Source: a bacterium (GTDB lineage Bacteria > Patescibacteriota > Saccharimonadia > Saccharimonadales > JAGQNK01). From it: a stretch of 51,838 nucleotides of DNA. Position numbers and translations under genes: made by a program. Below the pieces are notes generated by a model, which saw nothing but the letters and a program-made list of their open reading frames with translations, was not told where the DNA came from and did no database searches. The stretch lies in the NCBI GenBank assembly GCA_029557815.1, contig JAKQHX010000024.1, positions 1-51,838 of the forward strand, read 5' to 3'. Shown here in pieces: positions 2,109 to 29,567 of the stretch; the stretch's first letter is position 1, and each line of letters begins with the position of its first letter.

Positions 2109-2114
2109 GCGCTT

Positions 2115-2404: not shown

Positions 2405-4933
2405 ATGCAACACGAGAAAGAAAAACAAACATACAACCTGGAAATCAATGAAGCCTTGGAGTCATTCGGCTCGACTCGCAACGGGCTGAGTGCTGTCGAC
2501 GCACGCCAGCGGCTCGCCGAATATGGTCGCAATGAACTGACCGCTCGCAGGACTCCGTTGTGGCGGCGGATTATTGAACCGTTTGCCAGCTATTTCGTCT
2601 TGGTGATTATCGCTGCAGCCGTCATAAGCGCCTTTGAGCGGAAGTGGTTCGAGACGATTATTATCAGTGTGATTGTGGTGGTGAACGCCATCATATACTA
2701 TTTCCAGCAGTTTTCGGTTAGCCGTGTTCTCAAAACGCTCCGCGAACAGGACAAGCAGTTCGTCTTGACGCTCCGCGACGGTGAAGAAGAAAAAATAAAC
2801 AGCGAGTTGCTGGTGCCGGGTGACGTTATCTATATTTCGGAGGGCATGAAGATTCCGGCTGACGGCCGGTTAATCGAGGCAAACAACGTACAGGCTGATG
2901 AGTCGCTGCTGACGGGCGAATCGTTGCCGATTCACAAGCATGCCGGTGCTGTTGCCGGTACCAAACAGATTTATGACCAGGCAAATATGCTGTTCAAGGG
3001 ATCATATCTGAGTAGCGGCTCAGGTATGCTGCTCATTTGCGGCACAGGGAATGCCACCGAACTTGGGGCGATCAATACGCTTGCCGCTGAGGCCGATGAT
3101 GGTAAGACACCAATTGAGATTAAAATTGACGACCTGACCAAGAAGCTGCTCATTGGCATCATGGCGGTGACCATCGTTGTGTTCGGTCTGGCTATTTATC
3201 GGGGCATTCACCTCGAAGAGGCGATTGCCTACACGCTTAGCATTCTGGTTTCCGCTGTTCCCGAAGGTCTGCCCGTCGCGATGACGCTGGTGTTGCTCTT
3301 TAGCGCGCGGCGCATGGCTAAACAAAAGGCGCTCGTGAAGCATATCGCTGCGATGGAGACCATGGGAGCGATTACGCTGATAGCAACTGACAAAACCGGC
3401 ACTATCACCCAGAATAAGCTTGCGGTAGCTGACATGTATACTGCCCATAATGACAAAAAGACGTTCCATGAAGCAGTACGGGCCAGCCTAAACGGCGATG
3501 TCGATAACACCGAAGACCCTCTAGACAAAATATTGCATGTCGAAGTTGAACATACACGTATACCTCGTGACTGGAAGAAAGTAAAGGAATTCCCCTTCGA
3601 CCAGCGACTAAGGTTGAGCGGTGTATTATGGCAGCATCCGAAAGGCTACTCGCTATACGTTAAGGGTGCGCCGGAGCAGATTTTGCATCACTGCCGACCT
3701 ACTAAAGCATTGGCCGAAGCCAAGACGCAGCTCGCGGCATTCACCAGCCATGGATACCGGACGATTGGTTTTGCCCAAAAGGACAGCAAGAGCATGCCAG
3801 AAGCGCTTGACCATGGTGTACTGTCGAATATGTCGTTCGATGGGTTCATCGGTCTGAGCGACCAGCTGAGAGCCGGTGTCAGTAATGCTATAAAACAAGC
3901 GCAACAAGCCGGTATAAAAGTTGTTATGCTGACCGGCGATCACGTAGAAACAGCTGGACATATCGCTCGAAAGGTCGGTATTGCCAATGGTCACGGTGGT
4001 ATTACTGACAGCAGTGTGCTTGCCAGCGGCTCGCCTGAGGAAATTCGTAAAGCACTTGAGACAAACACAGTATTTGGTCGTGTGCTACCAGAACATAAAT
4101 ACGCGTTACTCAAGGCAATCAAGAAGCATGAGATTACCGCCATGACCGGAGACGGTGTAAATGACATACCTGCACTCGTTGAAGCGGACGCCGGCCTAGC
4201 TATGGGTGCCGGTACGGATGCAGCCAAGGATGCGAGCGACATTGTGCTTATCAACAGTAATTTTCAGACTATCATGAATGCCGTTCGTGTCGGCCGGACC
4301 GTCCTGGCTAATATCCGCAAAATGGTTGTTTATCTCGTCGGTACCAATAGCGGCGAGATACTTATCATGCTCCTTGCATTGTTATTCAATATGCCGCTGC
4401 CACTTACGGCGGTGATGATTTTGTGGGTCAATCTGGTAACGGATGGCGTATCGGTTATACCGCTCGGTCTGAGTCCGGCCGAAGAGCACCATATGAAGCA
4501 GCCACCCAAGGATCCGCGTGCTCCGCTGCTGGAAGGCTACATGCTGAATCGCTCCATCCTGCTGGCTATCATTATGGCGACGATGGTGCTATTTATCTTT
4601 AGCTTTACGCTGCACCACGGTGAAGCGTATGCCCGCACGGCGGCATTCCTCAGCCTGATTGTTATCCAGTGGGCAAATGCGTTCAATATGAACTTTGAAT
4701 TCAAGTCATGGGTATATAACTTCGTGCATCCAAATTACAAACTGGTTGTTGCTATCAGTGCATCAATTCTTGTAAATATTATTGTATTTATGACGCCTAT
4801 AAAAGAGTATTTCAATCTGGTTTCACTTCTCCCATACGATGCGCTCATAGCCATAGTATTGCCGGTACTTGCGACGCTCCTTCTGTGTGACATGCACAAA
4901 CTAATTTCCAACTTGTTAATCAAGCACCGCTAG
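2405..4933 (+). CDS. P-type cation-transporting ATPase (type II, Ca2+/Mg2+/Mn2+-like)
   Basis: 842 aa carrying TGES (LTGESLP), PEGLP, DKTGTITQNKL (phosphorylation site), TGDHVETA and TGDGVNDIPAL. The N-terminus is of Cation_ATPase_N type (GLSAVDARQRLAEYGRNEL). Confidence 0.9.
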   Translation: MQHEKEKQTYNLEINEALESFGSTRNGLSAVDARQRLAEYGRNELTARRTPLWRRIIEPFASYFVLVIIAAAVISAFERKWFETIIISVIVVVNAIIYYFQQFSVSRVLKTLREQDKQFVLTLRDGEEEKINSELLVPGDVIYISEGMKIPADGRLIEANNVQADESLLTGESLPIHKHAGAVAGTKQIYDQANMLFKGSYLSSGSGMLLICGTGNATELGAINTLAAEADDGKTPIEIKIDDLTKKLLIGIMAVTIVVFGLAIYRGIHLEEAIAYTLSILVSAVPEGLPVAMTLVLLFSARRMAKQKALVKHIAAMETMGAITLIATDKTGTITQNKLAVADMYTAHNDKKTFHEAVRASLNGDVDNTEDPLDKILHVEVEHTRIPRDWKKVKEFPFDQRLRLSGVLWQHPKGYSLYVKGAPEQILHHCRPTKALAEAKTQLAAFTSHGYRTIGFAQKDSKSMPEALDHGVLSNMSFDGFIGLSDQLRAGVSNAIKQAQQAGIKVVMLTGDHVETAGHIARKVGIANGHGGITDSSVLASGSPEEIRKALETNTVFGRVLPEHKYALLKAIKKHEITAMTGDGVNDIPALVEADAGLAMGAGTDAAKDASDIVLINSNFQTIMNAVRVGRTVLANIRKMVVYLVGTNSGEILIMLLALLFNMPLPLTAVMILWVNLVTDGVSVIPLGLSPAEEHHMKQPPKDPRAPLLEGYMLNRSILLAIIMATMVLFIFSFTLHHGEAYARTAAFLSLIVIQWANAFNMNFEFKSWVYNFVHPNYKLVVAISASILVNIIVFMTPIKEYFNLVSLLPYDALIAIVLPVLATLLLCDMHKLISNLLIKHR

Positions 4934-4937
4934 AGCA

Positions 4938-6293
4938 TCAGGAGCGCTGGTGCTTTATGCCGAGATGCAACCCGAGCAGTAGCCAAAAAACGGTAATGAT
5001 ACTTGAGCCTACGAGCACGGTGGTTAGGCCGAACTCATGTATAACAATCACGGCGGAAGCCGTCACAATACCTCCGCCCATGAACGGCTCGAATACTAGT
5101 TGCTTATAGGCAAAGCTTTCGCGTGCTTTGGACTTGTTGGATGGATCGGCCAAACGCTGCAGGAGCAAGCCAGTGGCGGTCATACCCATAGACTGCCCCA
5201 TATTTGTCAAACCTTTTTCGAACCAATGAGAACGGAACATGGCAGGCGCGAGCACTACAAAGCCGAAAACAATCCATGCGATACCAGCGACACTAAGAAT
5301 AATTATGATCGGTAGTTTGTCGCTCAGAACGCTGAGCGAAATAGTAGCGACCGCGCTCGCGATGAGAATGTCCAAAGCAATAGCATTGATGATTTCTGCG
5401 GTACGTCGTTGGATGAGTGTCTGTTTGCCGGCTTTTCTAAGGAGCATTTGGAGGATAATCCCTCCAATCATAGCGAGTGGGAACATCGGCAGGTATTTAA
5501 AGAAGCGGATGTCGGTAAGACCTCCGAGAATAAATTCTTCACCGATGATGAGCCCCTGCCAAAGGAGCCAGCCTATACCAATGGATAGCGCAAAGGCAAC
5601 GAGGTTTATAATGATTGCTTTCGGGTTAGTACTGAGCTTCTCACCAAGACGGAGCAGATTATAGCCGCTGCGGATCATTTGCTTTTCGCGTCGTGCGAGC
5701 TCCGCTTGGCGAGCCTTGTGATTTGATGCGTGTCGATTGTGCCAGTTTACAAAAAACACCCCGATAAGTATGGCGCTGATGAGGCTGATTGTTGCGAGCG
5801 TCAGGGCGATGTCAGTGCCCTCTTGCCAGCCTAACTGCTCAAAGGTCGGAGACAAGCCGGCAGCTGTACCGTGACCACCTTCGAAGCTGACCTCTATGAG
5901 TGCCCCAGTCAGTGGGCTGGCGTTGAAAACGGGTACGAGCAGAAACATCGTTAACAGGGCACCAATGACATATTGGCCCCATGCCAATACATTCCCAAAG
6001 GCGATCATAGGACCGGCCATTCTCCAAATCTTTTGGCGGTCGGGGATAACCCTTCCAAGAAACAAGCCGGCAAATACGATGTTTATGAGGTACTTGGGAA
6101 GCTTGGCCCATTCCGTAGTTATTTGCAGCGGTATGGTTTCCAGGACTTGCGGCCCCAGGATAAGCCCAATTACGCCAGCTACCAAAGAGCTTGGTATGAA
6201 AAATTTTTGCAATATTCCGGAGCCGCGTTTGATAAAACGAGCAATCACCAGGATGATGGCAAGTACTACGAGGCTTTCTTGAACTGGTGTCAT
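4938..6293 (-). CDS. sodium:glutamate symporter family (GltS-like) transporter
   Basis: 451 aa, polytopic. LQKFFIPSSLVAGVIGL at the N-terminus and the SFEGGHGTAAG motif resemble E. coli GltS (KKYTIPEPVAGGL, SGGHGTGAAW). Confidence 0.6.
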   Translation of the reverse strand: MTPVQESLVVLAIILVIARFIKRGSGILQKFFIPSSLVAGVIGLILGPQVLETIPLQITTEWAKLPKYLINIVFAGLFLGRVIPDRQKIWRMAGPMIAFGNVLAWGQYVIGALLTMFLLVPVFNASPLTGALIEVSFEGGHGTAAGLSPTFEQLGWQEGTDIALTLATISLISAILIGVFFVNWHNRHASNHKARQAELARREKQMIRSGYNLLRLGEKLSTNPKAIIINLVAFALSIGIGWLLWQGLIIGEEFILGGLTDIRFFKYLPMFPLAMIGGIILQMLLRKAGKQTLIQRRTAEIINAIALDILIASAVATISLSVLSDKLPIIIILSVAGIAWIVFGFVVLAPAMFRSHWFEKGLTNMGQSMGMTATGLLLQRLADPSNKSKARESFAYKQLVFEPFMGGGIVTASAVIVIHEFGLTTVLVGSSIITVFWLLLGLHLGIKHQRS

Positions 6294-6341
6294 GTTACTC
6301 CGACTTCACGGGGCAGTTGGCATCGGCCCACCCGCTATGTT

Positions 6342-6986
6342 TTATTGGTTTTGCTTTTGCTTGATGGCGTCGTCCAGTAGTTTGGTAAATGCATCCAGGC
6401 TGGCCGGATTATCGATTTTCTGGCCATTCAACTCAAACGTAGGTGTGGACTGGTAGCCGAGCCGTCTCGCTTCGGCACGATCAGCTTGCACGATATCGTT
6501 GGTCTGCTCGCTCTTTATGTCGGTGCGAAACTTGTCCATATCAAGCCCAAGTTTTTCGGCATAGCCTTCGAAAATCGGGGTAGGATTGGTGCTATCACTC
6601 CACGATGTTTGATTTTCGAACAGCATGTCGTGCATTTCCCAGAACTTACCTTGCATAGCAGCGGCTTCGGCGGCGCGAGCACTGACAAGAGCGTTCTGGT
6701 GGATTTCGACAAGTGGATAGTGGCGGAACTGGAAGGTAACTTTACCTTTGTATTTTTGCTTGAGTTCTTTGAGCAATGGGTGGTACTGCCCGCATGACGG
6801 ACACTGGAAATCACCATATTCTATCAAGACAACGCCGGACGAACCCTCAAGCTTGTGCTGGGTCAGTTCCGCTGTTTCTTTGCCGCCATTTTCGGTAGGG
6901 GTATTCGTTTCGCGCTTATTGAATACCAAAAGACCACCAAAGACGATGACGATTGCGGCCAAGATAAATAAAAATCGTTTGCTCAT
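6342..6986 (-). CDS. DsbA-family thiol:disulfide oxidoreductase, membrane-anchored
   Basis: CPSC active site in YGDFQCPSCGQYHP and an N-terminal TM anchor. Start trimmed to ATG 6986, which is preceded by AGGAGG with a 9-nt spacing. The ORF-track start at 7025 lacks an RBS. Confidence 0.85.
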   Translation of the reverse strand: MSKRFLFILAAIVIVFGGLLVFNKRETNTPTENGGKETAELTQHKLEGSSGVVLIEYGDFQCPSCGQYHPLLKELKQKYKGKVTFQFRHYPLVEIHQNALVSARAAEAAAMQGKFWEMHDMLFENQTSWSDSTNPTPIFEGYAEKLGLDMDKFRTDIKSEQTNDIVQADRAEARRLGYQSTPTFELNGQKIDNPASLDAFTKLLDDAIKQKQNQ

Positions 6987-7048
6987 CTGGACTATTTTCC
7001 TCCTAAAATATGTACAACTAATCATACCATGCTGGTACTATTAAAATC

Positions 7049-8101
7049 ATGAATACGTTTACGGTTATTTTGTTTACGGCGCTCGCGCTCATGTCAGTCG
7101 GGCTTTTGAAATCTTACCGCAATGTATCGGAGCGCGAGTTGCGGCGGCGGGCCCGGGAAGGCGACGAACTCGCTGCTGTACTGTACAAGGCGGTCGCATA
7201 TGGGTCGAGCTTGGGCGCGGTGTTGTGGTTTTTGGTGGCCGCCACGAACGCTATGTTTTTTGTGTCTATCGCTCGTTCAGCGCCGGCGTGGTTTGCCGTT
7301 GCGGCAAGTGCGGCGCTCATATGGTTTGCCTTCGTTTGGATGCCCGCCCGCGACGTGACCCGTTTCAGTACCTGGGTTGCCGTCAAGCTAGCACCGGTTC
7401 TGGCCTGGATCCTTAATTATCTCCACCCTATATTCAGCCGCATCGCAAGGTTTGTTGGCCAACACCGCCCGGTTACCATCCATACAGGTATTTTTGATCG
7501 CGAAGACCTGGTTGACCTTATCCAGGATCAAAAGGTCCAGCCATACAACCGCATAGACAAAGTCAGCCTGGATATTGCACTGCATGCGTTGACCTTTGGT
7601 AGTGTGCTCGTGCGTGATGTCATGGTTCCGCGTCGCGCGGTTAAGATGGTCAAGTCAGACGAAACGGTCGGTCCGGTGCTGATGAGCGAACTGCACAAAA
7701 GCGGTTTTTCGCGTTTCCCTGTTTTTTCCGGCAAGAAAGACAATCTCGTCGGCACGCTTTATATGAAGGATCTCGTGAAAGCCAAGGCTGGTGGCAAGAT
7801 CGAAAAGATCATGCGTGATGATTTGGCGTATATCCATGAAGAGGAGCCATTAACTGATGCACTGCAGGCCATCCTCAAGACGCACCGCCAGCAGTATGTC
7901 GTAGTGAACAGTTTCGAGGAATACGTCGGTATTATTACCATGGAGGATGTGCTGGAGCAGATCGTCGGTAAACCAATTCTGGATGAGTTCGATCAGTACG
8001 ACGATATGCGAGCCGTAGCAGCCCGTGCGGCACAGAAGGAGCATGCTGAGCACCTAGGGAAAGAAAAGCCTACCGAAGAATCTCCAGAGGTGGTAAAATA
8101 G
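7049..8101 (+). CDS. CNNM/DUF21 transmembrane domain plus CBS-pair protein (HlyC/CorC-family transporter-like)
   Basis: 350 aa. Four N-terminal TM helices are followed by a CBS-pair region (DVMVPRRAVKMV...FPVFSGKKDNLVGTLYMKDL...ITMEDVLEQIVG). No CorC_HlyC C-terminal domain is visible. Confidence 0.8.
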   Translation: MNTFTVILFTALALMSVGLLKSYRNVSERELRRRAREGDELAAVLYKAVAYGSSLGAVLWFLVAATNAMFFVSIARSAPAWFAVAASAALIWFAFVWMPARDVTRFSTWVAVKLAPVLAWILNYLHPIFSRIARFVGQHRPVTIHTGIFDREDLVDLIQDQKVQPYNRIDKVSLDIALHALTFGSVLVRDVMVPRRAVKMVKSDETVGPVLMSELHKSGFSRFPVFSGKKDNLVGTLYMKDLVKAKAGGKIEKIMRDDLAYIHEEEPLTDALQAILKTHRQQYVVVNSFEEYVGIITMEDVLEQIVGKPILDEFDQYDDMRAVAARAAQKEHAEHLGKEKPTEESPEVVK

Positions 8102-8227
8102 ACCAAATGATTGTATTACGAGCAAATCTCAATATGAATCCCGGGGCTGGCGTATAGCAACGCTTGTATGCATGTACGCCCACAGCCCACCCCAAGCAAG
8201 TGCTCACCTAAATAACTCGGGAAAATT

Positions 8228-10000
8228 ATGACAATACGCACACTCAGCATCGACACCAAAAACAAAATCTCAGAAGAGATAATCATGAAAGGATGGGTGA
8301 ACTCTCGGCGCGACCACGGCGGGCTTATCTTTATTGACGTGCGCGACCATACGGGCGTCACGCAGTTGGTATTCCAGCCGGAGCATCCAGAAGCTTTTGC
8401 GGTTGCCGAGCAGCTACGGGACGAGTATGTGATTTCGGCCACCGGCACGGTCAAAGAACGCGCGGAGGGGCTAAAAAACCCAAACATTGAGAGCGGCGCT
8501 ATCGAGGTTGTCGTCAGCGACCTAACTATCCTCAACCGTTCGGAGCCATTGCCGGTTCAGTTACACGGCGAAGCGCAGAGCAGCGAAGATGTACGGCTTC
8601 GCTATCGTTACCTCGACTTGCGTCGGCCAAAAATGCAAACCATGCTGAAAAAACGTGCACAGTACTACAAAATGATGCGTGATTTCATGGAATCGCATGC
8701 ATTTACTGAAGTCACGACACCGATTTTGGCAAACTCCAGTCCCGAAGGGGCGCGTGACTTTTTGGTGCCATCACGGGTACACCCTGGGAAATTCTATGCC
8801 TTGCCGCAGGCGCCGCAACAGTTCAAGCAGCTTCTTATGGTTGGCGGTGTGTCGCGGTACTACCAGCTAGCAACCTGTTTTCGTGATGAAGATCCGCGCG
8901 CTGACCGGCTGTACGGTGACTTTTACCAGCTCGACCTTGAGATGGCCTTTGTTGAGGACGGCGAAGAGGTGCGAGTTACGACAGAGCCGTTGATCAAGCA
9001 GCTGGTGACTGAGTTTGGTAAAAAGAAGTTACTGGCCGAAGAAATCCCACGTATCCCATACCAAGAAGCAATGGACCGCTATGGTTCCGACAAACCGGAT
9101 TTACGTTTCGGTATGGAACTGGTGGATCTTTCCGATGCATTGCGTGCGACAGAATTCGGTGTTTTCAAAAGTACGCTGCAAGCGGGCGGTGTCGTGAAAG
9201 CCATCCGGGTAGAAAATGCCGCAGCTATGAGCCGGTCGCAAATCGATCAGTTTACTGAGATCGCCAAAAGCGAGGGTGCAGGCGGTTTGGCATACCTGAC
9301 ATACGAAAACGGAGAGGTAAAGTCGCCGATAACAAAGTTCCTGTCCGAGGCAGAACTCACTGCAATCCGCTCCAAGACCGGTGCCAAAGATGGCGATGTC
9401 GTATTCTTCGGTGCTGACACGCGGACAACTGCAAACAAGGTGCTCGGTCGGCTCAGGAACGAATTTGCCGACCATTTTGGGCTCAAGGATCCAAACGTCG
9501 TGGCATTGGCCTGGATTGTCGATTTTCCGTTCTATGAGTGGGATGACAAAGCGAACAAGCTTGATTTTGGTCACAACCCATTTTCTATGCCCAAAGGCGG
9601 CATCGGGGCACTAAAGTCAGAAGACAAACAAGCCATTCTGGCTGATCAGTTCGACATGGTCATGAATGGCTACGAAGTCTGCTCTGGTGCGGTACGAAAC
9701 CACAACCCGGATGTTATGTACGAGGTATTCGGTGCCCTTGGCTATGATAGGACATACGTCGACGCCAAGTTCGGCGCTATGATAAATGCCTTCAAATATG
9801 GCGCGCCGCCGCATGCCGGCTGTGCGTTCGGTATCGATCGTATATTTATGGTGCTCATGGGCGAAGAAAACATCCGTGAGATTATCGCTTTCCCGAAGAA
9901 CGGCTCTGGGGTAGACGTTATGATGGACTCGCCTTCAGAAGTTGACCCTATCCAGCTGAAAGAGCTGGGGATAGCGTCGCCGACAGTCTCTCATACATAA
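8228..10000 (+). CDS. aspS: aspartate--tRNA ligase
   Basis: 590 aa. OB-fold N-terminus GWVNSRRDHGGLIFIDVRDHTGVTQLVF, class II motifs (FRDEDPRADR, GGVSRYYQLATCFR, GCAFGIDR) and a bacterial-type insertion domain. Confidence 0.95.
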   Translation: MTIRTLSIDTKNKISEEIIMKGWVNSRRDHGGLIFIDVRDHTGVTQLVFQPEHPEAFAVAEQLRDEYVISATGTVKERAEGLKNPNIESGAIEVVVSDLTILNRSEPLPVQLHGEAQSSEDVRLRYRYLDLRRPKMQTMLKKRAQYYKMMRDFMESHAFTEVTTPILANSSPEGARDFLVPSRVHPGKFYALPQAPQQFKQLLMVGGVSRYYQLATCFRDEDPRADRLYGDFYQLDLEMAFVEDGEEVRVTTEPLIKQLVTEFGKKKLLAEEIPRIPYQEAMDRYGSDKPDLRFGMELVDLSDALRATEFGVFKSTLQAGGVVKAIRVENAAAMSRSQIDQFTEIAKSEGAGGLAYLTYENGEVKSPITKFLSEAELTAIRSKTGAKDGDVVFFGADTRTTANKVLGRLRNEFADHFGLKDPNVVALAWIVDFPFYEWDDKANKLDFGHNPFSMPKGGIGALKSEDKQAILADQFDMVMNGYEVCSGAVRNHNPDVMYEVFGALGYDRTYVDAKFGAMINAFKYGAPPHAGCAFGIDRIFMVLMGEENIREIIAFPKNGSGVDVMMDSPSEVDPIQLKELGIASPTVSHT

Positions 10001-10049: not shown

Positions 10050-12107
10050 ATGCTAAAAAACCATAAGATACAGCTTAATTTCGCACTGTCGTTTCTTGTA
10101 CTTGTATGCAGTTTCTTCGTGGCAACGGCCAGGACGGAGGCCGCTACGATAAGTGTGAGCGCAGGTACTGATACAAAAGTGACGGATTCGGTTTGCCGCT
10201 TGTCCGAAGCCATAGAAAACATAAACAACCAGGCACAAACACATGCCGACTGTGCGGCCGGTACTGGCAATGATGTTATCCAATTGCCGACAGGGACTAT
10301 TGCGTTGAGTGCAGACTTGCCGATGCTTACGAGGTCAATCACTATTCAGGGCAGCGGTACGGACAGATCTATTATCAACGGTGGCGGACAATACTTTGTG
10401 TTTCGGTTTAACGCTCCGACTGGCGGCTTTGTATTCAAGGACCTTAAGGTAAGGTCTTTCGGTGGCAGCGCAATTATGGGTCAAGATGCGAAAAGTATAG
10501 ACATAAAAAATATCGAAGCAGACGGCAACGGTTCTATATCCAAGGATATGGGCGATGGGACGACATTCATAGGTGGCTTTGCATTCATTAGCTCCGGAGT
10601 TGAACCTCCGCAGATTTCCATTGATGATTTCTATGCCCATGATTTTGTATCATCGGATGCTGTATTTATGGCCGGAGTGGCAGTAATGGGTCCGAATAAT
10701 AAGATGCAAACAGTAATCGGTCGGAATATTACCATATCCAATCTCGTGTCTACCACCCCTAATGGGCAGCTGATAGGAGTCTTTAGCACTGCTGGTCTTG
10801 GAGGAGGCTCTCGTTCCATGGCCGGTACGTATGAAAATATTACAGTCGAGAACATAGAGTCGATGAATGGAGCAAACGTCTCTGCCTTTGCCCTCTCTGG
10901 AGTTATCGGTGGGGGTGACAGTACGGGTAATATTACCTTGCGAAACGCAACTATTCGAAATATCACAACCGGGCCTAGTCCTTATGCAAGTGGGGCGGTT
11001 AGCGTGGTCGGGGGTGCTAGTGGCCCAGGGGAGCATTTCGAAGGAAGCATCAAGCTACAAAACGTTGTCATTGCCAATGTGTCTGTAGGTGGCACATCAA
11101 AGAGCTGTAGCAAGAACGACATAAGCACGTCGCTCGGGGGTCAAGGTAGCGCTTCACTGTCAATCGAGAGTTTAGGTGGAAATATTTCTGATGATAAGTC
11201 CTGCAATGCTTACTTTAAGCATGCCACCGATAAGACAAACCAGACGAAGCTCAAGGACACGCTCGGCAAGTTAAGCAACAACGGCGGGGTAGTGCCAACT
11301 ATACCTCTGCTTGCCGGTAGCCTGGCAATTGACGCCGGTATATGTGAAGATGCGCCAGCAAAAGATGCGCGTGGTATATCCCGCCCTCAGGGGGTGACTT
11401 GTGACTCCGGTGCGTTCGAAGTACAACAAGCGTCACTATCAAGTCCTGAGGGCTCGCCTGATCCTGTGACAGGTAAAAAGATATTTATTGATGCGCCTAT
11501 CCCCGGATCGGTGGTAAACTCCGCGTCGATTATTCCTGCTACAGAGGCTGAAGCCGACTCGTCCCATGAATACCCTCTTGGTTTGGTTGGCTTTACGGTA
11601 GAGGGAATTCCAAGTGGCTCTACCCAGACCATGAACCTGTATTTCGAGACTGACGCCAAGGCGGAAGAATTCGTAGCCAGAAAATACAATCAAAGTACCA
11701 AAGAGTACCGGGACATTCCTGGCGCAGTCCTCTCGAACGAAACCAGAAATGGCAGGCCAGTTATAAAACTGAGCTATCAGATTACGGACGGCGGCGAGCT
11801 GGATCTCGATGGTGCCGCGGATGGATCGCTTCTTGACCCGGTTGGTCTTGCAAAGCCAAAGAGCTTACTCGCAAGCACAGGTACGACTACCATAGTGACT
11901 TCATTGGTTGCGGCTGTGCTGATAGTAGCCGTAATCTTGGTCAATATTGATTACCGCCGGCATAAGGCACCTCTCATAGAGCTCGATAAGCAAACCCATC
12001 AGAACCTTGCTGCGAACTATACCTTCTGGCATCATGTCAAAGTCGTCACAATCCCAACTATGAAGTACCGGTTTACGATTGTCTTGGACAAAAAGACAAC
12101 TATCTAA
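10050..12107 (+). CDS. secreted parallel beta-helix surface protein with C-terminal membrane anchor
   Basis: 685 aa with a signal peptide. CRLSEAIENINN...C start motif and DARGISRPQGVTCDSGAFEV end motif, as in choice-of-anchor-Q-type beta-helix domains. A C-terminal TDGGELDLDGAADGSLLDPVGLA module is followed by LLASTG, a TM helix and YRRHK. Confidence 0.8.
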   Translation: MLKNHKIQLNFALSFLVLVCSFFVATARTEAATISVSAGTDTKVTDSVCRLSEAIENINNQAQTHADCAAGTGNDVIQLPTGTIALSADLPMLTRSITIQGSGTDRSIINGGGQYFVFRFNAPTGGFVFKDLKVRSFGGSAIMGQDAKSIDIKNIEADGNGSISKDMGDGTTFIGGFAFISSGVEPPQISIDDFYAHDFVSSDAVFMAGVAVMGPNNKMQTVIGRNITISNLVSTTPNGQLIGVFSTAGLGGGSRSMAGTYENITVENIESMNGANVSAFALSGVIGGGDSTGNITLRNATIRNITTGPSPYASGAVSVVGGASGPGEHFEGSIKLQNVVIANVSVGGTSKSCSKNDISTSLGGQGSASLSIESLGGNISDDKSCNAYFKHATDKTNQTKLKDTLGKLSNNGGVVPTIPLLAGSLAIDAGICEDAPAKDARGISRPQGVTCDSGAFEVQQASLSSPEGSPDPVTGKKIFIDAPIPGSVVNSASIIPATEAEADSSHEYPLGLVGFTVEGIPSGSTQTMNLYFETDAKAEEFVARKYNQSTKEYRDIPGAVLSNETRNGRPVIKLSYQITDGGELDLDGAADGSLLDPVGLAKPKSLLASTGTTTIVTSLVAAVLIVAVILVNIDYRRHKAPLIELDKQTHQNLAANYTFWHHVKVVTIPTMKYRFTIVLDKKTTI

Positions 12108-12147: not shown

Positions 12148-12609
12148 TTATCTGATAATAATCCGTGTGGCTGATTCTTTGTTGCCGTCTTTTTTGACGA
12201 AGACCGTGACTTGATTGCCTTGCTTGACTGCTGAAATGTCCAAGGTATTGGATTGCTGGGTAACCTGTACGCTTTCGCTGAGGGCGATACGCTTTTCTTG
12301 GCCGTTCACTTGTTTTATGGTTATGACATTGTTGCCGACTTCTGTGACCTGTCCAATGACAGTACCGGGAAGAACCGGGTTATTGGCGATGAGATTGAGC
12401 GGATTTATGGCTTCGGTTATTTTCTTTATTGCAGCTTCTCCACCTTGTTCTTTGCCCTTTTGGAAGCCAGTATAGTAACCAATGCCTGCAGAGGCACCCA
12501 CGAGCAGTGTTATCACCACGACGGATTTGGCATAATGCCTTTTATTGGACTTGCGATGGTATGCCGGCGGTAAGACTTTTGGGTCTGATTTATCTTGAGA
12601 TGTTTCCAT
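12148..12609 (-). CDS. hypothetical membrane-anchored protein
   Basis: Start trimmed to METSQDK (ATG 12609), with TAATAT 7 nt upstream. One TM helix (VVVITLLVGASAGIGYY) is followed by a small beta-rich ectodomain. Divergent from the giant gene. Confidence 0.5.
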   Translation of the reverse strand: METSQDKSDPKVLPPAYHRKSNKRHYAKSVVVITLLVGASAGIGYYTGFQKGKEQGGEAAIKKITEAINPLNLIANNPVLPGTVIGQVTEVGNNVITIKQVNGQEKRIALSESVQVTQQSNTLDISAVKQGNQVTVFVKKDGNKESATRIIIR

Positions 12610-12680
12610 TACGTATATATTACCATAAGGACAATTGATTATATCATTACAAAAAGCTAAAATTAAAACAACCAACAATC

Positions 12681-15600
12681 ATGAAGCAGGGGCTTCGGGT
12701 GCATATATTTTCGGAGTTATCAAATCTCGTGCAAACAGACAAAAATATGAACTATAAGTTTCCATTGGTGCATTGGTACGCCTTTGTATTGCTCGCCACG
12801 TTGTTGCTCGCGGCTGTCGTTGTGCAAAACGGTTTTACGGCAAGCGCATTTAGCGGTAGTGGCGAAGGTACGACCAATGCGCCATATCTCATTAGTACAT
12901 GTGAACATCTCCAAGAGATTGCGTTGGATAAGGACGCAAACTATATATTGACTCAGGATATAGATTGCTCGAATACCACTTCCTGGAATGACGGTGCCGG
13001 CTTTGCGCCTATACACAACTTCATCGGATCCCTAGATGGCAGAAACCACACCATAACAGGTCTCTATATCAATCGACCGAGCGACTACGCAGTGGGACTA
13101 TTCGGATTTGCAGACGGTGCAATAATTAAAAATATACGGTTCGCAAACAGTCTGGCCACAACCGGACAGGTAGCTATTACCGGTAGGCAGAATGTGGGTG
13201 CTGTAGCCGGCGAATTACGATACAATGCTGTACTCTCCAACATTCATAGTGAGCTCTCCGTACAATCTTCGCCTGCCGGGACGTCAGGTAGTCTTACGGG
13301 AGGACTGGTCGGCATTAGCAGAGGTAATATAAGCCGGAGCTCAAGTAGCGGGACGGTTATTGCAAATGTACCCGATTCGGGAGGCGTTTATGCAACCGCA
13401 GGCGGATTGGTCGGCTACACGGATACCTGGGAAGGGGGCGTGGGACATGTACAAGACAGTTATGCCACTGGAACGGTGCGGCTCGCAAACACAGAAACGA
13501 CATATCCCGGGACTGCTAATTGTGGGGGGCTTATAGGATCCATCAGCTATCCAGCAACCGTACAACGCTCTTATTCAAGTGGGGATGTTAACTGTCCTGC
13601 GAATGATGGCAGTGCAGGTGGCTTTATCGGTATACTTATCACAAGCGGTACTACAGAAGTACAGGTGGAAAACAACTTTGCCACCGGCTCTGTTACCGGT
13701 CCGTGGGGCGGACGCGGTTTCATTGGCTGGACTGACTCGGATACAACCGACATATCGAGCAACTACTACGATGCCACGCAAACTGGTCAAACAACGTGTG
13801 TTGGGGAACAGGAGTCAGGATGTAACGCCGTTAACACAGACGGCTCAGACCAGGACTACTTCAAAAACCCAGATAACTTCCCATTCCCCAATTGGGATCA
13901 GGGAAGTGTATGGACAATCGGGCCAGACATGCCCGTTTTCAAGGAAGTCCAAATAAGCCCCGATCCTCCAACTAACCTGAACGCCATACGTGAAACAGAT
14001 ATAACGCTTAATTGGGAAGCGCCGATTCCGCTTGAGGGCAGAAGCAATAACATCAACGATTATAAAATAGAGTATAAGTTACCCACCGACACTGCGTGGA
14101 CGGTATACGATGATGGTGTGTCTGCGCTCACATCCGCAACGGTGAGCGGAATTGACGATGAAAGTACTTATATCTTCCGTATCCAAGCCGTGAATGATAT
14201 AGGCGCAGGGCTTTACTCGGCGTCTTTGCAGGTTTCACCGGACGCCCCTACTCAGGTGGTGGGGCTGACCGGAGAAGCCAACGCAAGGTCAGCGAGCTTG
14301 TCATGGGAGGCGACAGAGAGAACGGCAAGCTACAAAACCCAATACAAAGCAAGTTCAGACTCGGAATGGTCTGAAGGTATCAGTCTGGGTGAAGCGAGTG
14401 ATACAAGCAGAGCTATATATGGGCTAAATCCCGGTGTTGCTTATGAGTTCCGGGTGGCAGCAGTCAATGGGGGCGGTCAAGGACCGTGGTCTGAAGTGCT
14501 TGAACTAGCAACCACACAGCAACAGTCGTACACAATTGCGACATGCCAAGAGCTACAAGACATACAGAACGATCCATCAGGAATCTATACCCTTGCGAAC
14601 GACATCAATTGTTCGGATACGGTGAACTGGAATAGCGGCAAAGGCTTCTTGCCTATAGATGTTTTCATCGGAACGCTTAAGGGTAATGGCCATACAATCG
14701 ACAGCATATACATGAATACTCAGATAATCGGCTCACCGCAGGATACTTTTCATGGTGTAGGGCTTTTTGGCGTAGTGATGGATGCGAATATTACAAATGT
14801 TCGGTTACAAAATACTACTCTGATAGCAAGCTTTGCACTCGATGAAACTGTTGACGCAGACCAAGACGGTATTCCAGATGACGTACAATTGCCGACCAGT
14901 CCAGAGGAAATCCAGCAGTTGCTCGCGGGCGGCCAGGAAGAAATATTAGCAAGGCTGGGTAGTATCGCAGGCGTGGTGGGCAACTTTGGAAAAGTTGGCG
15001 CCGGCACTATGGCAGGGCTGGTTTTGGGTGGAACATACCAAGATATCACAAGCAATAACGCTGCGGTGATTGGTGGCGAAGCTGGCGGTATATTCGGAAT
15101 CGTCACACCATTTTCACTCCAGGCCCAGTTAGGAGGCGCCTCAGCACCGTTTACTGAAAGTGCTCCAATTACTATGTCCAGGCTATCATCTAGCGGCGCG
15201 GTTAACGGTGTGGTTTCTGGCGGGTTAATCGGTTTGATACTATCTGGCATATCCAATGACATCAATGTTCCACAGGTAAAAGTCCAAGATAGCAGCTCGA
15301 CTGCAACGGTTGACGGGAACGTTTCTGGCGGCTTGGCTGGTGTTGCTGTTTCAATCATGGAAATTTTGTCTCTGGTACAAACTCAAAATCCAGCAGAAAT
15401 ACCTGAAAAAGTAAGTTCAGCACTTTCTACCTATGATATAGAAATCAAAGACTCATCGGCGAAAGGCAATGTAAGTACATGCAATACGATCACGCAGGTG
15501 CCTATCGGAAGCTTGGGTGGGGTGCTTGGCGCGGGCGTTGGAGTGCAGCTTAAAGGGACCAAAGCCAGCGGTAGCGTAACAGCCTGTGCGAGCAATGCTG

Positions 15601-18600
15601 ACGAGATAGGAGTGTACGGCGGTGCGCTGGGCGGCCTGGCTGGCAGTTTGCTTGCCAGCCGGATAGATGACAGCCATGCCAGCGGGCGTGTAGGTGGTGT
15701 CCAGCCCTTGACTGGCCCTCGTCCAGATGAGAGGCTCAGGATTTTTGCGGGCGCAAGCGGTGGGTTGACTGGCATATTCATCTCTACCGGCGATCAGAAT
15801 AACAGGCCGGTGATTAGCAGCAGCTCTTCTACTGGACCGGTTAGAAATGACGGCGGCAACGGTTTGTTCGCCTTTAATGGAGGATTCTCTGGCATATACA
15901 TAGGAAGCGGAACTATCAAAGATTCGCATTCCAAGAGCGTGGTAGAAAATAAGTTGCCTCAAGACCACTACTTTGGCGCCAGTATCAGCGGAGGACTTCT
16001 CGGTTTATCAGTGGGTATTGATGTGAATCCGATTCTTAGTATGGTGTTTGGTAAAGGGCTGATTCCGTCACGGGGAATCGTGGTGAATAACTCCTACGCT
16101 ACCGGTGACGTCAAGACTACCAACAGTAGTGGCGGCGTCTTCGCGTCTATATCAGGCGGCATGGGCGGTATGATACTGGGCCACGCGAGCATAATTAACT
16201 CGCACGCTACCGGTAATGTATCATCGAACATGTCTGATGGCTTGCACATAAACGTGGAGAACCCTTTCCAGACCCAAGGAAACTCACTTGCGATAAGCGG
16301 TGGCTTACTGGGTTTTGCAGCTGGCATAGACCAGAATCAGATACTAACTACAGTAGCCGGCGCCGAGCCTAAAGACGGAGACGGTATTTTGATTAACAAT
16401 GTGTATGCTGCTGGCAACGTTAAGGGCACCATAGGAGGTGGCTTGATCGGCTATGCAGAGTTACGAACAAGGATTAATAAAACATATGCCGAAGGCAAAG
16501 TGCGTGGCACAATTGTCGGTGGACTCGTGGGTTCAAGTGGTGCAGGCGCAACGGCTGGACTAGCAGGAGCGAGTGCGGTGCTAAGTAGTATCACTGACCC
16601 GGACGGTATACCTGCAATGGTTATGCCGTTAATCCAGAAGGGGGCCGAGATGGTCTCGCCTTTGGTTATTACTAATACGTATACGACTGGTGACATAGCA
16701 GCTGTGCCGTTAAGTGTTAAGGTGACGCAGGGAAACTCTCCAGGCCCGGTTGCGCCATTTGAGCTCCCAACCATGGCTGGTGGGGTAGTGGGGCTTTACG
16801 CCTCTCCTGCGGGCAAGGTAGAGGATTCGTATGCAAGTGGCAAAATAACAGTTGCTAACGATACAACCCTAGAAGCTGCTTTGCCAGAACAGGTAAAAAT
16901 TCCCCGCATATCGAACATGGTCGGCGGTATCTTTGGAGTAGCAGTAGCCATGCCGCAGCCTGACATGGCCCAGATACTCGCTGGAGCAATTGATAGAGAT
17001 AATCCTCCGCCCCTTGAGGCTTACTTCAAAACCCCGATGATTGTGAAAGATGTTTTTGCAGTGAGCGAGCTGCGCGTTCCGGACAAGACACTGGTCGGCG
17101 GTGTTGCCGGCTTGTTTGGCTCGCCACTCAGCGCTGCTTTTCAGGATTCGGTTCCGGCAAATAAATTCTACGACATAGACAATATATACTTTGATGAGTC
17201 GCAGATTCGTGTGAGCGGTTGTAATGGTCCCCGGAAGCCCGAGATGTTCTTTAATGAGTTATTTGAAGGACTTGAGGTGCCGGACGAAGCAGTGGAGGCT
17301 GGCACGCTACCCCCACTACCGGAAGACTCACCCGTAAATATTGTGCTGCCGTTCTTCAAGGTTGCAAATTGTAACAGCGTAAACAAGGCTAATACCACGC
17401 CTGCGTACTTCAAGAATAATAAAGTGAATCCACCCCTGGATAAATGGGACTTTGACAAAACCTGGGTCGTAAAAGAGGAAGATTATCCAAAGTTTGTTGC
17501 CGGCGCTCATACCTCTACGCCCGTTGATCCGCCCACTCCTACCGTTCCTACAACTCCTTCAATCCCTACGGGTACAACAACGACAGGCACACGGCGTCTG
17601 CCGCCTAGTGGTTTTGGGGCCGGATCGCCAATCGATCTCGATACTACCGAGACCGCAGGCAGACTTGATAACTTCATGACGAATAGATTTGGTAATGTGT
17701 CTGAAAAACTCGCCAAGCTAATCCCTTATATTCTCCTGCTATTGCTCGTAGCGCTCGCTTTGTTGTATACCTACCTGTCCATCCTCGAAGACAATAGACG
17801 GAAGCGCTTGCAAGCACTGGTTACGCGGTTCAAGGAATCGCAGATTGCACGATCCGTATATCTAAAGCTTACCTCGCACTTCATAAACACCCCTATTACA
17901 GAAATGCGAACAGCGGTTGAGTTGTTGACCGGCCTGAAGCAGCTGGATGGCCAGGTTGCTGGCGTCGTTCAAGAGCAGCTAAAGCTACTTGGCGGAAACG
18001 CACAAATGCTCCTAAGTGCCGCCCAGGAGTTGAGTCAGGCACAGGAATCAAGTCTGCAAAAAGTCCAGGCCATCAAGATACCTTCCCTTGTCAGGAAGCC
18101 GGCAGTATGGGTGCCCGTAGCGGTGACCGTGACGCTCGCACTATTTGCAAATATACTATTCGTACAAATAGATAAATACGAACCAAGTGTCATAAATTTT
18201 GCTACGCAGGTCGCCTTGGCGGTAGTAGGGGTTGTGGCGCTGGTCATATCCTGTTACTTCCTTGAACAATCAAAACACATAACGGCAACTGTTCGTGCTC
18301 AGCATGATTTGGAAAAATCAGTTTTTGACCAGCAAAACTACTTAATTCATTCGATTGCGTCTAGTCTCGATAGGGAAACGCAAGAATTAAAGAAATATGA
18401 AAAAGAAATTGCAGGTAAGCCGAAAGGTACTATATTCACCGATGGGCTTAAGGATCTGGAGTATCTAACCAGTCGTTTTGATAAGCTATCGCAGCTATCC
18501 AAGCACGTACCTGGTCTTAGCTGGTCGACGAACGTTAGTCTCGTAGCGCAAAAGGCACTTGCTGATGTAGCGCACTATGCCGAACAGGCCCGAATTACCA

Positions 18601-18992
18601 TCAACTCATCAATTGACAGTACCGTTCATGCAAATGTTGATACCGATTCGCTCTATCATATACTCTACTCATCGTTAGAGAATGCGGTGAAATACAGTAA
18701 GCCTGAGTCACAGGTAGCTTTGGTTGTAGGCGCGCAACGAGAATATGCCATTATCGAAGTACAAGACCACGGCAAAGGAATCTCCAAGGAGAACATCGTA
18801 CGGTTGTTCCAGCCCTTTTCACGAATCAGTCCGGTTGAGCAGTTTGACGATCAAGGAATAGGTCTGGATCTGTACTTTTCTAAGGTAATTGTCGAAAACT
18901 ACGGCGGATCAATCGTCCTTGTTTCACAAGAAGGTCAAGGGACCACGGCGAAAATAAGGCTGCCCCAGAGTCGCAAGCCGGCTAAAAAGTAA
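12681..18992 (+). CDS. giant surface protein (two GLUG-motif modules, two FN3 domains, long GG[LIF][ILV]G repeat region) fused to a C-terminal membrane-embedded histidine kinase
   Basis: Uninterrupted 2103-aa ORF; an alternative start at ATG 12747 would give the signal peptide MNYKFPLVHWYAFVLLATLLLAAVVV.
- GLUG-type modules lie at about 12870-13945 and from 14520.
- The FN3 pair lies at about 13950-14515.
- A Pro/Thr linker lies at about 17510-17590.
- TM helices lie at about 17718-17787, 18103-18165 and 18199-18263.
- HATPase_c boxes: N (SLENAVKYS), G1 (VQDHGKGIS), F (FQPFSR), G2 (GIGLDLYFSKVIVENYGGSI). Confidence 0.9.
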   Translation: MKQGLRVHIFSELSNLVQTDKNMNYKFPLVHWYAFVLLATLLLAAVVVQNGFTASAFSGSGEGTTNAPYLISTCEHLQEIALDKDANYILTQDIDCSNTTSWNDGAGFAPIHNFIGSLDGRNHTITGLYINRPSDYAVGLFGFADGAIIKNIRFANSLATTGQVAITGRQNVGAVAGELRYNAVLSNIHSELSVQSSPAGTSGSLTGGLVGISRGNISRSSSSGTVIANVPDSGGVYATAGGLVGYTDTWEGGVGHVQDSYATGTVRLANTETTYPGTANCGGLIGSISYPATVQRSYSSGDVNCPANDGSAGGFIGILITSGTTEVQVENNFATGSVTGPWGGRGFIGWTDSDTTDISSNYYDATQTGQTTCVGEQESGCNAVNTDGSDQDYFKNPDNFPFPNWDQGSVWTIGPDMPVFKEVQISPDPPTNLNAIRETDITLNWEAPIPLEGRSNNINDYKIEYKLPTDTAWTVYDDGVSALTSATVSGIDDESTYIFRIQAVNDIGAGLYSASLQVSPDAPTQVVGLTGEANARSASLSWEATERTASYKTQYKASSDSEWSEGISLGEASDTSRAIYGLNPGVAYEFRVAAVNGGGQGPWSEVLELATTQQQSYTIATCQELQDIQNDPSGIYTLANDINCSDTVNWNSGKGFLPIDVFIGTLKGNGHTIDSIYMNTQIIGSPQDTFHGVGLFGVVMDANITNVRLQNTTLIASFALDETVDADQDGIPDDVQLPTSPEEIQQLLAGGQEEILARLGSIAGVVGNFGKVGAGTMAGLVLGGTYQDITSNNAAVIGGEAGGIFGIVTPFSLQAQLGGASAPFTESAPITMSRLSSSGAVNGVVSGGLIGLILSGISNDINVPQVKVQDSSSTATVDGNVSGGLAGVAVSIMEILSLVQTQNPAEIPEKVSSALSTYDIEIKDSSAKGNVSTCNTITQVPIGSLGGVLGAGVGVQLKGTKASGSVTACASNADEIGVYGGALGGLAGSLLASRIDDSHASGRVGGVQPLTGPRPDERLRIFAGASGGLTGIFISTGDQNNRPVISSSSSTGPVRNDGGNGLFAFNGGFSGIYIGSGTIKDSHSKSVVENKLPQDHYFGASISGGLLGLSVGIDVNPILSMVFGKGLIPSRGIVVNNSYATGDVKTTNSSGGVFASISGGMGGMILGHASIINSHATGNVSSNMSDGLHINVENPFQTQGNSLAISGGLLGFAAGIDQNQILTTVAGAEPKDGDGILINNVYAAGNVKGTIGGGLIGYAELRTRINKTYAEGKVRGTIVGGLVGSSGAGATAGLAGASAVLSSITDPDGIPAMVMPLIQKGAEMVSPLVITNTYTTGDIAAVPLSVKVTQGNSPGPVAPFELPTMAGGVVGLYASPAGKVEDSYASGKITVANDTTLEAALPEQVKIPRISNMVGGIFGVAVAMPQPDMAQILAGAIDRDNPPPLEAYFKTPMIVKDVFAVSELRVPDKTLVGGVAGLFGSPLSAAFQDSVPANKFYDIDNIYFDESQIRVSGCNGPRKPEMFFNELFEGLEVPDEAVEAGTLPPLPEDSPVNIVLPFFKVANCNSVNKANTTPAYFKNNKVNPPLDKWDFDKTWVVKEEDYPKFVAGAHTSTPVDPPTPTVPTTPSIPTGTTTTGTRRLPPSGFGAGSPIDLDTTETAGRLDNFMTNRFGNVSEKLAKLIPYILLLLLVALALLYTYLSILEDNRRKRLQALVTRFKESQIARSVYLKLTSHFINTPITEMRTAVELLTGLKQLDGQVAGVVQEQLKLLGGNAQMLLSAAQELSQAQESSLQKVQAIKIPSLVRKPAVWVPVAVTVTLALFANILFVQIDKYEPSVINFATQVALAVVGVVALVISCYFLEQSKHITATVRAQHDLEKSVFDQQNYLIHSIASSLDRETQELKKYEKEIAGKPKGTIFTDGLKDLEYLTSRFDKLSQLSKHVPGLSWSTNVSLVAQKALADVAHYAEQARITINSSIDSTVHANVDTDSLYHILYSSLENAVKYSKPESQVALVVGAQREYAIIEVQDHGKGISKENIVRLFQPFSRISPVEQFDDQGIGLDLYFSKVIVENYGGSIVLVSQEGQGTTAKIRLPQSRKPAKK

Positions 18993-27797: not shown

Positions 27798-28388
27798 ATG
27801 GTTACATTCAGTACTTTACACGACAGCGAGATTGTGAATTTGTTACAAAACGGCTCAGTCGGTGTCATTCCAACGGATACAGTGTATGGGTTGGCATGTC
27901 TGGCTACGGACCGGACGGCGGTTGGCCGTCTATACGAGCTAAAATCCCGCGATGACAAACCAGGTACGCTTATAGCCGCTAGCATAGAGCAGCTGGTTGA
28001 GCTTGGCATACCGCGGCGTTACGTGACCGCTGCCCAGAATTTTTGGCCGAATCCCATAAGTGTCATCATCCCGACTACCCCTGATTTGCAGTATCTTGAC
28101 CTTGGTAGAATGAGTCTGGCGATGCGGGTGCCGATAGATCAAACAATCACCGCATTGTTGGCTAATACCGGTCCGCTACTTACATCCAGCGCCAACCATC
28201 CCGGCGAACCACCTGCATCGACGAGCGAGGAAGCCAAGACCTATTTCGGCGACTCGGTGGATTTTTATGTCGATGGCGGCGATTTGTCCGATCGAGCCGC
28301 TTCGACCATTATTCGGATAATAGATGACGCCGTTGAGGTGCTCCGTGAAGGAGCGGTCAAGATAAACGAAAAAGGAGAAATTATATGA
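27798..28388 (+). CDS. tsaC: L-threonylcarbamoyladenylate synthase (YrdC/Sua5/TsaC family)
   Basis: VGVIPTDTVYGLAC, KSRDDKPGTL and TSSANHPGEPP motifs. Start trimmed to ATG 27798 (GGAG upstream), because the track start at 27681 overlaps the divergent MscS gene. Confidence 0.85.
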   Translation: MVTFSTLHDSEIVNLLQNGSVGVIPTDTVYGLACLATDRTAVGRLYELKSRDDKPGTLIAASIEQLVELGIPRRYVTAAQNFWPNPISVIIPTTPDLQYLDLGRMSLAMRVPIDQTITALLANTGPLLTSSANHPGEPPASTSEEAKTYFGDSVDFYVDGGDLSDRAASTIIRIIDDAVEVLREGAVKINEKGEII

Positions 28389-29169: not shown

Positions 29170-29196
29170 AAGCCCATTCTCTAGTATCATACATCT

Positions 29197-29565
29197 ATGA
29201 ATAAAACAGTACTACTCGTAGACGATGACAAGCTCGTGCGCGAAAGCCTCGCGCGCGTGCTGGCAGAAAAAGGCTTGACCGTACAAGAAGCCGCTAACGG
29301 CAAAGAAGGACTAGAAAAAGCCCTCGCCGGCCAGGTGGACTTGGTCGTAACGGACGTAATTATGCCCGAGGTAGACGGCCTGACGATGCTGGCTAAGTTG
29401 CGTGAAGACTCAAAGGGCAAAGAAATTCCAGCGATTATTCTCACCAACGATGAGCAGACCGAAACGTTGAACCAAGCTATGCAGACGGGCGTCACAACGT
29501 ACTTGTCAAAAGTGAGCCTGGATGCAGAGGCGCTATCTGAGCAGATTCTTGTCGCACTTGGCTAG
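29197..29565 (+). CDS. single-domain response regulator (receiver only, CheY-like)
   Basis: 122 aa. Acidic pocket VDDD, phospho-acceptor context VVTDVIMPEVDG, conserved T (ILTND) and K (YLSKV). No output domain. Confidence 0.9.
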   Translation: MNKTVLLVDDDKLVRESLARVLAEKGLTVQEAANGKEGLEKALAGQVDLVVTDVIMPEVDGLTMLAKLREDSKGKEIPAIILTNDEQTETLNQAMQTGVTTYLSKVSLDAEALSEQILVALG

Positions 29566-29567
29566 CA

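Follow-up and report, generated by a model that had tools for sequence, protein, structure and literature searches.

A giant GLUG/FN3 surface protein with an atypical, split histidine-kinase module belongs to an undescribed family of Saccharibacteria

A giant surface protein joined to a histidine-kinase module

The gene at 12681..18992 (+) of a 51,838-nucleotide (nt) stretch of bacterial DNA (contig JAKQHX010000024.1, assembly GCA_029557815.1; the whole stretch is called the window hereafter) encodes a protein of 2103 amino acids (aa) which belongs to an as yet undescribed family of giant Saccharibacteria surface proteins with an atypical histidine-kinase module. The constant element of the family is a 420-aa C-terminal module joined to varied ectodomains, and the window protein is therefore not a one-off kinase with GLUG repeats and fibronectin type III (FN3) domains. 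As far as sequence can tell, the kinase core is atypical in that a dimerisation and histidine phosphotransfer (DHp) hairpin bearing the histidine is split by a membrane hairpin from a second, His-less DHp and the catalytic and ATP-binding (CA) domain. Anatomy and conservation together point to a sensor kinase for surface or host contact in which the phospho-acceptor arrangement is split, a reading to which a probability of roughly 0.6 is given.

A preliminary description of this DNA had proposed that a single open reading frame (ORF) of 2103 aa links an adhesin-like region to a kinase, and this was borne out. No internal stop interrupts the 2103 codons of 12681..18992 (+), an identical protein exists in the public protein collection (P0130), and a protein of the same length encoded on a separate JGI contig of 19.9 kb (P0368) is identical at 2102/2103 residues, while a further JGI fragment (L006) shows 99% identity to the window protein across the C-terminus. 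Since these sequences agree and one of them comes from a separate assembly, a chimeric join or a missed frameshift is effectively excluded. That an assembly error of this kind fused an adhesin gene to a kinase gene is thus scarcely credible: two independent assemblies yield the same ORF, the fusion is retained in dozens of divergent relatives, and the one related contig that is contaminated (L011) represents a different locus and so lends the idea no support. Scans for sigma-70 promoters and terminators around the giant gene gave nothing above chance.

Organisation and conservation of the kinase core

The gene and the features of its C-terminal part, including the transmembrane (TM) segments, are as follows.

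12681..18992 (+): whole gene, 2103 aa, with an alternative start at Met23 (nt 12747)
17730..17786 (+): TM1 (aa 1684-1702), from hydropathy
17787..18080 (+): DHp-A, helical hairpin with H-box LTSHFINTPIT, His1733 codon at 17877-17879, from hhalign and conservation
18105..18263 (+): TM2 (aa 1809-1827) and TM3 (aa 1843-1861), together forming a tight hairpin in the membrane, from hydropathy and AlphaFold2
18303..18515 (+): DHp-B, second helical hairpin adjoining the ATPase domain, its His1890 not conserved in the family, from hhalign and Foldseek
18639..18971 (+): HATPase_c (CA) with N box Asn2001, G1 box D2029/G2031/G2033, F box 2043-2046 and G2 box G2059/G2061, from Pfam

Past the stalk that closes the ectodomain, the chain runs through TM1, the H-box hairpin (His1733), TM2, TM3, the second hairpin (~aa 1875-1945) and CA, placing the H-box between TM1 and TM2 and ~250 aa upstream of the ATPase domain. 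The preliminary description had seen an intact HATPase_c domain with N, G1, F and G2 boxes, and Pfam agrees at 72.5 bits against a cut-off of 26.4 (E 5e-20, aa 1987-2097), the boxes standing at aa 2000, 2029, 2043 and 2059. In the Pfam scan Glug, fn3 and HATPase_c all came out above their cut-offs, and HisKA, the fourth family that had been pointed to, came out far below its own, 250 aa upstream of CA. Among module-only relatives, 13 of 17 match HisKA (PF00512) at E<=1, the best at 1.2e-6. The only NCBIfam matches are partial ones to generic kinases (PhoR and PnpS, aa 1926-2095), far under the cut-offs.

Residue conservation was followed across 75 representatives of the family, where His1733, T1737, P1738, A2002, D2029, G2031, G2033, P2045, G2059, G2061, L2062 and L2064 are conserved at >=90% and Asn2001 is invariant; for the ATP-binding residues this conservation extends to another 75 representatives (150 in total). 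Counts of DHp-A and DHp-B residues, made on the 150 representatives with hidden Markov models (HMM), place DHp-A in 145 of them, with the H-box present in 139 of these 145. At the DHp-B column equivalent to the phospho-acceptor, relatives carry A, P, G, S, T or D and a histidine is rare. An alignment of four sequences reproduces this pattern, the first H-box being invariant and the second-hairpin column holding a histidine in the window protein alone (LIHSIASSL, against FIADAANKL, FIAEASNKL and FISEASNKL).

Both hairpins were recognised by profile comparison with a canonical DHp, DHp-A at 98.3% (E 1.8e-14, His on His) and DHp-B at 92% (E 6e-7, without the histidine). DHp-A and DHp-B match each other weakly (54%, E 1e-4), and a recent internal duplication from one to the other was considered and is not strongly supported by this value.

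An AlphaFold2 model of aa 1674-2103 (predicted local distance difference test, pLDDT, 77; predicted template modelling score, pTM, 0.64) draws TM1 through the H-box as one helix followed by a return helix, TM2, and TM3 continuous with the first helix of DHp-B; after that helix come a short return helix and the alpha/beta fold of CA. The predicted DHp-B and CA superpose on ZraS with a target-normalised Foldseek score (TMt) of 0.79 over 234 columns (root-mean-square deviation 3.5), and further Foldseek matches are HK853, DivL (4q20) and BceS (8g3a_D, 370 columns). Judged by this conservation and these predicted folds, the kinase core appears to be functional.

Membrane topology of the C-terminal module

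Hydropathy returned four hydrophobic segments, at aa 30-48, 1684-1702, 1809-1827 and 1843-1861. The preliminary description had a Pro/Thr stalk followed by a single TM helix; the stalk is present at aa 1610-1637, and three TM helices, not one, follow the ectodomain. Family-wide, the mean number of Lys and Arg is 4.1 after TM1, 2.2 before TM2, 0.3 in the TM2-TM3 loop and 3.5 after TM3, the loop itself being 0-11 aa long. From this charge distribution both DHp hairpins are placed in the cytoplasm, and the window protein is predicted to be a type-I membrane protein with ~1630 aa displayed outside the cell.

Between the end of TM1 and the equivalent of His1733 lie 26-38 residues, with a median of 31 (108 members), and this fixed spacing, together with the continuous predicted helix, suggests that TM1 is rigidly coupled to the histidine helix. 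Measured in 115 members, the median depth below the membrane is 31 residues for the DHp-A histidine and 30 for its DHp-B equivalent, so that, with respect to the membrane, the hairpins stand in register.

The ectodomain

The part of the protein displayed outside comprises the following features.

12768..12848 (+): hydrophobic segment near the N-terminus (aa 30-48), with a signal-peptidase site predicted at ASA|FSG (aa 54-57), from hydropathy
12849..13955 (+): ectodomain module 1, a GLUG-type right-handed beta-helix, from AlphaFold2, Foldseek and Pfam
13962..14516 (+): two FN3 domains (aa 428-518 and 529-612), from Pfam fn3
14526..17480 (+): ectodomain module 2, with a second PY.I.T/DI.CS head (aa 616-680), ~900 aa of GLUG-like repeats and a YFKNN...W.F...W...YPKF cap, from sequence motifs
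17508..17591 (+): Pro/Thr-rich stalk (aa 1610-1637), from sequence

The signal peptide of the preliminary description stands, as the N-terminal segment fits a cleaved signal peptide and orthologues retain an AxAFSGxGxG consensus around the putative cleavage site; a start at Met23 would give a signal peptide of classical form. Also confirmed were the two copies of the PY.I.T...DI.CS.T..W module, found at ~aa 67 and 616, and the two FN3 domains, which Pfam fn3 recovers in two stretches (82.1 bits against a threshold of 25, E 3e-23) and which match titin and RPTP FN3 among PDB sequences. As for the GG[LIF][ILV]G repeats, said to number dozens, the count is lower at 9 strict and 18 relaxed-pattern occurrences in the protein, and is still far above the mean of 0.11 obtained in shuffled sequences.

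Module 1 (aa 49-425), modelled by AlphaFold2 with 16 orthologues in the alignment, is predicted as a beta-helix (pLDDT 82, pTM 0.84) whose best Foldseek matches are the N-domains of IgA1 protease (7uvl_P and 6xja_P) and BACOVA_03286 (3n6z), with query-normalised scores (TMq) of 0.55-0.59, and a weak PDB sequence match to 6xjb agrees with them. In the window protein Pfam Glug reaches 22.8 bits over four stretches (cut-off 20.5), and Peptidase_M26_N reaches 27.3 bits, just under its cut-off of 27.7; only this N-region model matches, Pfam giving no match to the M26 peptidase catalytic domain in the window protein. Module 2 is collinear across ~14 orthologue clusters, and P-rich stalks occupy the equivalent position in three relatives (L002, L007 and L014). 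The ectodomain also contains an acidic motif, DADQDGIPDD (14850-14879 of the window, aa 724-733), which GLUG-type orthologues keep in the form NGLPD and which looks like a calcium-binding site.

Distribution of the family in Saccharibacteria

An exhaustive profile search (E<=1e-30, representatives of 50%-identity clusters) yielded 192 representatives, mostly of 1400-4400 aa, the majority matching in two stretches at the extreme C-terminus. Among the 139 H-box representatives, 83 have at least 1000 aa, 71 at least 1400 aa and 37 at least 2000 aa, the longest having 4413 aa. Collinear orthologues of the window protein, with its GLUG/FN3 organisation, make up about 14 clusters and are 33-46% identical to it in module 1, and other members carry swapped ectodomains composed of DUF285, NHL and fn3, of NHL, fn3 and the M26_N region, of DUF11 or of the Ig-type domain Big_7. 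In a genome scan, a Candidatus Saccharibacteria metagenome-assembled genome (L002) was seen to hold a 3687-aa ORF with NHL propellers, three FN3 domains, GLUG-type modules and the C-terminal module at 35% identity, and a second locus (L007) encodes FN3, the P-rich stalk, TM1 and the module in an ORF open to the contig start. In another relative, L001/P0001, the frame stays open upstream through TM1. The fusion is consequently kept in many distant relatives, a point that the preliminary description had raised as a question. Word-indexed homologue searches returned nearly only generic kinases, the family members among them being P0001, P0121 and P0267, and it took the exhaustive profile search to bring the family into view.

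Short members were also considered. P0121 (L011) was rejected as a short form, the contig opening with an Illumina adapter and the gene stopping at the G1 box; the adapter lies at 1-40 and the stop at 2234-2236 of this public ENA contig, which is contaminated or chimeric. The other short members are apparent contig-edge or split-gene-call fragments and were likewise not retained: upstream of P0134, at a contig end, a P/T stalk lies in frame, and the P0197 cluster includes a member of 1921 aa.

The members named in the source collections, RTK94599.1 ('hypothetical protein') and MFO0955449.1 ('fibronectin type III domain-containing protein'), are both from Candidatus Saccharibacteria. Because every named relative belongs to this group, the earlier guess of an epibiotic, small-genome organism fits. 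Literature searches on kinases of Saccharibacteria or Patescibacteria, on giant surface proteins and on DHp arrangements of the tandem or pseudo kind found nothing relevant, and no described family with such a module or such ectodomains came up in them or in the family libraries, in line with the preliminary description, which knew of no GLUG/FN3-ectodomain kinase family.

Proposed mechanism and alternative readings

In the proposed sensor kinase, two IgA1-protease-like GLUG beta-helices and two FN3 domains would be displayed outside the cell on the Pro/Thr stalk, TM1 would continue as a single helix into DHp-A with His1733 ~31 residues beneath the membrane, and the chain would then re-enter the membrane as the TM2-TM3 hairpin and descend as the His-less DHp-B carrying the intact ATP-binding CA. 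A surface structure of the host or of a neighbouring cell may bind or pull the ectodomain and displace TM1; if the signal does run inward, this displacement would shift the DHp-A helix, and the shifted helix would alter the access of CA, held by DHp-B, to His1733. The phosphorylated His1733 would finally pass its phosphoryl group to an unlinked single-domain receiver.

Several results weigh against this sensor-kinase reading. Pfam HisKA reaches only 12-13.4 bits on the window protein against a threshold of 26.9. In canonical HisKA kinases the Glu or Asp after the histidine serves as the catalytic base, and among the 139 members with an H-box this position is Tyr in 122, Phe in 2, His in 6 and E or D in 7, an aromatic residue (Phe in the window protein) replacing Glu/Asp in 124/139. 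The DHp that adjoins CA has no conserved histidine. Moreover, ectodomains are freely swapped among family members, and the module might for this reason be a generic anchor instead of the output of a specific sensor; and at 7 of 8 loci (the window, L002, L012, L013, L014, L015 and L017) no receiver adjoins the family gene. Much of this would suit a pseudokinase or ATP-dependent anchor, that is, a module which tethers the giant proteins and binds or hydrolyses ATP or acts as a scaffold with no His-to-Asp phosphotransfer: the residue after the histidine is not acidic, the CA-adjacent DHp is His-less as in the pseudokinase DivL, itself among the fold matches, the family is mostly orphan, and a single constant module bears many unrelated ectodomains. 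Such an anchor is nevertheless judged rather unlikely, given that the H-box histidine, the T-P pair and all ATP-binding boxes are nearly invariant among members at <=25% identity, which makes catalysis at the H-box histidine hard to discount, and given that a receiver stands directly downstream at one locus (L016). It was also considered that the working phospho-acceptor of the window protein is His1890 in DHp-B, the upstream H-box being a relic. This residue does occupy the canonical column with the right hydrophobic spacing (LIHSIASSL), but a histidine is found there in only 5/75 aligned sequences, one of them a canonical kinase, its place is taken by N, T, P or A in close orthologues, and His1733 is the residue conserved across the family; a role of this sort for His1890 is very improbable.

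A further possibility refines the sensor-kinase reading and does not replace it. DHp-A and DHp-B of one polypeptide may pack as a four-helix bundle mimicking the protomers of a dimer, one half having kept the histidine and exchanged its CA for the membrane hairpin, the other having kept CA and lost the histidine. The connectivity TM1-a1-a2-TM2/TM3-a1'-a2'-CA fits a covalently linked dimer, both hairpins are homologous to DHp, the DHp-A histidine and the DHp-B column lie equally deep below the membrane, and the pTM of the model suggests a defined global arrangement. However, equal spacing could be mere inheritance from a duplication, the profile similarity between the two hairpins is weak, and a dimer built around an eight-helix core is just as possible, so that the single-chain arrangement is put forward tentatively and is held to be doubtful. 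Broader still is the proposal, for which the odds appear poor, that the family is the main contact-sensing system of Saccharibacteria, composed of single-chain pseudo-dimeric kinases in which the force on, or the ligand of, the adhesin would be relayed by TM1 to the phospho-acceptor helix and CA would phosphorylate the histidine carried by the chain's other half. If this were true, host attachment would be converted into phosphorylation with no need for dimerisation and with a shared orphan receiver.

Comparison with known systems

The giant protein shares with class I HisKA/HATPase_c kinases (HK853, ZraS, PhoR and WalK) a CA with N, G1, F and G2 boxes, the DHp and CA fold recognised in the comparison with ZraS, the H-x-x-x-T-P pattern of the H-box and a TM helix leading straight into the histidine helix. 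It differs from them in that two TM helices and a His-less hairpin part the histidine hairpin from CA, in the aromatic instead of acidic residue after the histidine, in the failure of Pfam HisKA, in the regulator that is usually not adjacent, and in an ectodomain 5-20 times larger than is usual for this class.

Intramembrane-sensing kinases of the BceS/LiaS type have, like the giant, a TM2-TM3 pair with a near-absent outer loop followed by DHp and CA. In BceS, however, the histidine is in that DHp and an ABC transporter partner is adjacent, whereas in the giant the histidine lies upstream and the ectodomain is of giant size. No ABC transporter neighbours the window gene, and among the loci examined an FtsX/ABC pair was found only in L016. 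DivL-type pseudokinases (4q20) similarly have a DHp without a phospho-acceptor histidine beside HATPase_c, but possess neither a second, His-bearing DHp nor an ectodomain. The separation of the two functions is also seen in the class II kinase CheA, where the phospho-acceptor histidine is on a separate helical domain and the dimerisation domain adjacent to the ATPase is His-less; there, unlike in the giant, the histidine domain is an HPt bundle and not HisKA-type, and the protein is soluble and coupled to receptors through CheW.

On the extracellular side, module 1 corresponds in fold and motifs to the N-terminal GLUG beta-helix of the IgA1 protease/ZmpA family and related Gram-positive surface proteins, from which the giant differs by having no M26 catalytic domain, by a TM anchor in place of LPXTG and by the kinase fusion. 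The hybrid two-component systems of Bacteroides also join a large, probably glycan-binding extracytoplasmic sensor (beta-propeller/Y_Y_Y) to a kinase. Their sensors, in contrast, are of ~700-800 aa, their kinase core is canonical, and receiver and DNA-binding domains are part of the same chain.

Significance

Saccharibacteria live attached to other bacteria, and to our knowledge no mechanism by which they sense attachment has been described. The present family, which combines adhesin-type domains with a conserved kinase module in many lineages, offers concrete candidate genes for this function. Since Saccharibacteria are now genetically manipulable (PMC10633639), the attachment-sensing idea is testable. 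The architecture is furthermore an exception to the rule that the ATPase domain adjoins the phospho-acceptor hairpin without interruption, and would provide a natural asymmetric kinase with distinct histidine-donating and CA-carrying halves. Under current annotation pipelines the family is labelled 'hypothetical' or 'FN3 domain-containing', and the kinase is overlooked.

Genomic context

Genes of the window that are relevant to the surroundings of the giant gene and to a possible partner are listed below.

10050-12107 (+): 685-aa surface protein with signal peptide, CRLSEAIENIN (CSLREA-like), repeat-rich middle and C-terminal TM anchor, no Pfam match
12148-12678 (-): small membrane protein, upstream of the giant gene and divergent
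29197..29565 (+): stand-alone receiver of 122 aa, the only one of the window, Pfam Response_reg E 5.5e-26
29568-30923 (-): canonical HisKA/HATPase_c kinase of 451 aa, tail-to-tail with the receiver, from Pfam

The second large surface protein that the preliminary description had noticed near the giant gene is indeed the 685-aa product of 10050-12107, and downstream of the giant gene are genes for an unknown 305-aa protein and a metallophosphoesterase. No second member of the giant-kinase family was found in the window. It had likewise been stated correctly that no response regulator is adjacent: there is none within 10 kb, and the one at 29197, which is beside the canonical kinase that this description had passed over, is a possible phosphotransfer partner of the giant kinase.

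Among the eight loci examined, L016 alone has a receiver next to the family gene, 70 nt downstream of P0147 and convergent with it. At L016 11324-13713 (-) this 121-aa stand-alone receiver is followed by FtsX/MacB and ABC ATPase genes; as it shows 28% identity to the window receiver, it was not established as its orthologue. In L015 (5529-7004) and L016 (4314-5738) a SASA-family gene (PF03629) overlaps the start codon of the giant kinase gene, which suggests an operon in this subfamily. A Crp-type regulator is found near family members in L012 and L015.

The window at 28385-38570 and L012 at 1-9665 have a common gene order of MazG, Mur ligase (-), ABC-2 transporter and Dus. In L012 the family member P0136 comes directly after Dus, and in the window the giant gene is 20 kb away on the opposite side; family genes thus occupy different sites in related genomes. 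In L002 (12054-15130) genes for a Glug protein of 654 aa and a sortase come after that of the 3687-aa member, which places TM-anchored and sortase-anchored surface proteins side by side.

Elsewhere in the window, a 742-aa ORF without Pfam match (40647-42875, +) lies in its most GC-rich 2 kb (0.535 against ~0.49), and a full-length serpin (PF00079, E 8e-103), extended at its N-terminus by ~110 aa and unusual for a probable Saccharibacteria contig, is encoded at 44293-45717 (-). Three tRNA genes with a CAT anticodon are located within 7 kb, all on the minus strand (43568-43643, 48842-48916 and 50119-50195), and presumably represent the initiator tRNA, the elongator tRNA and the Ile tRNA modified with lysidine.

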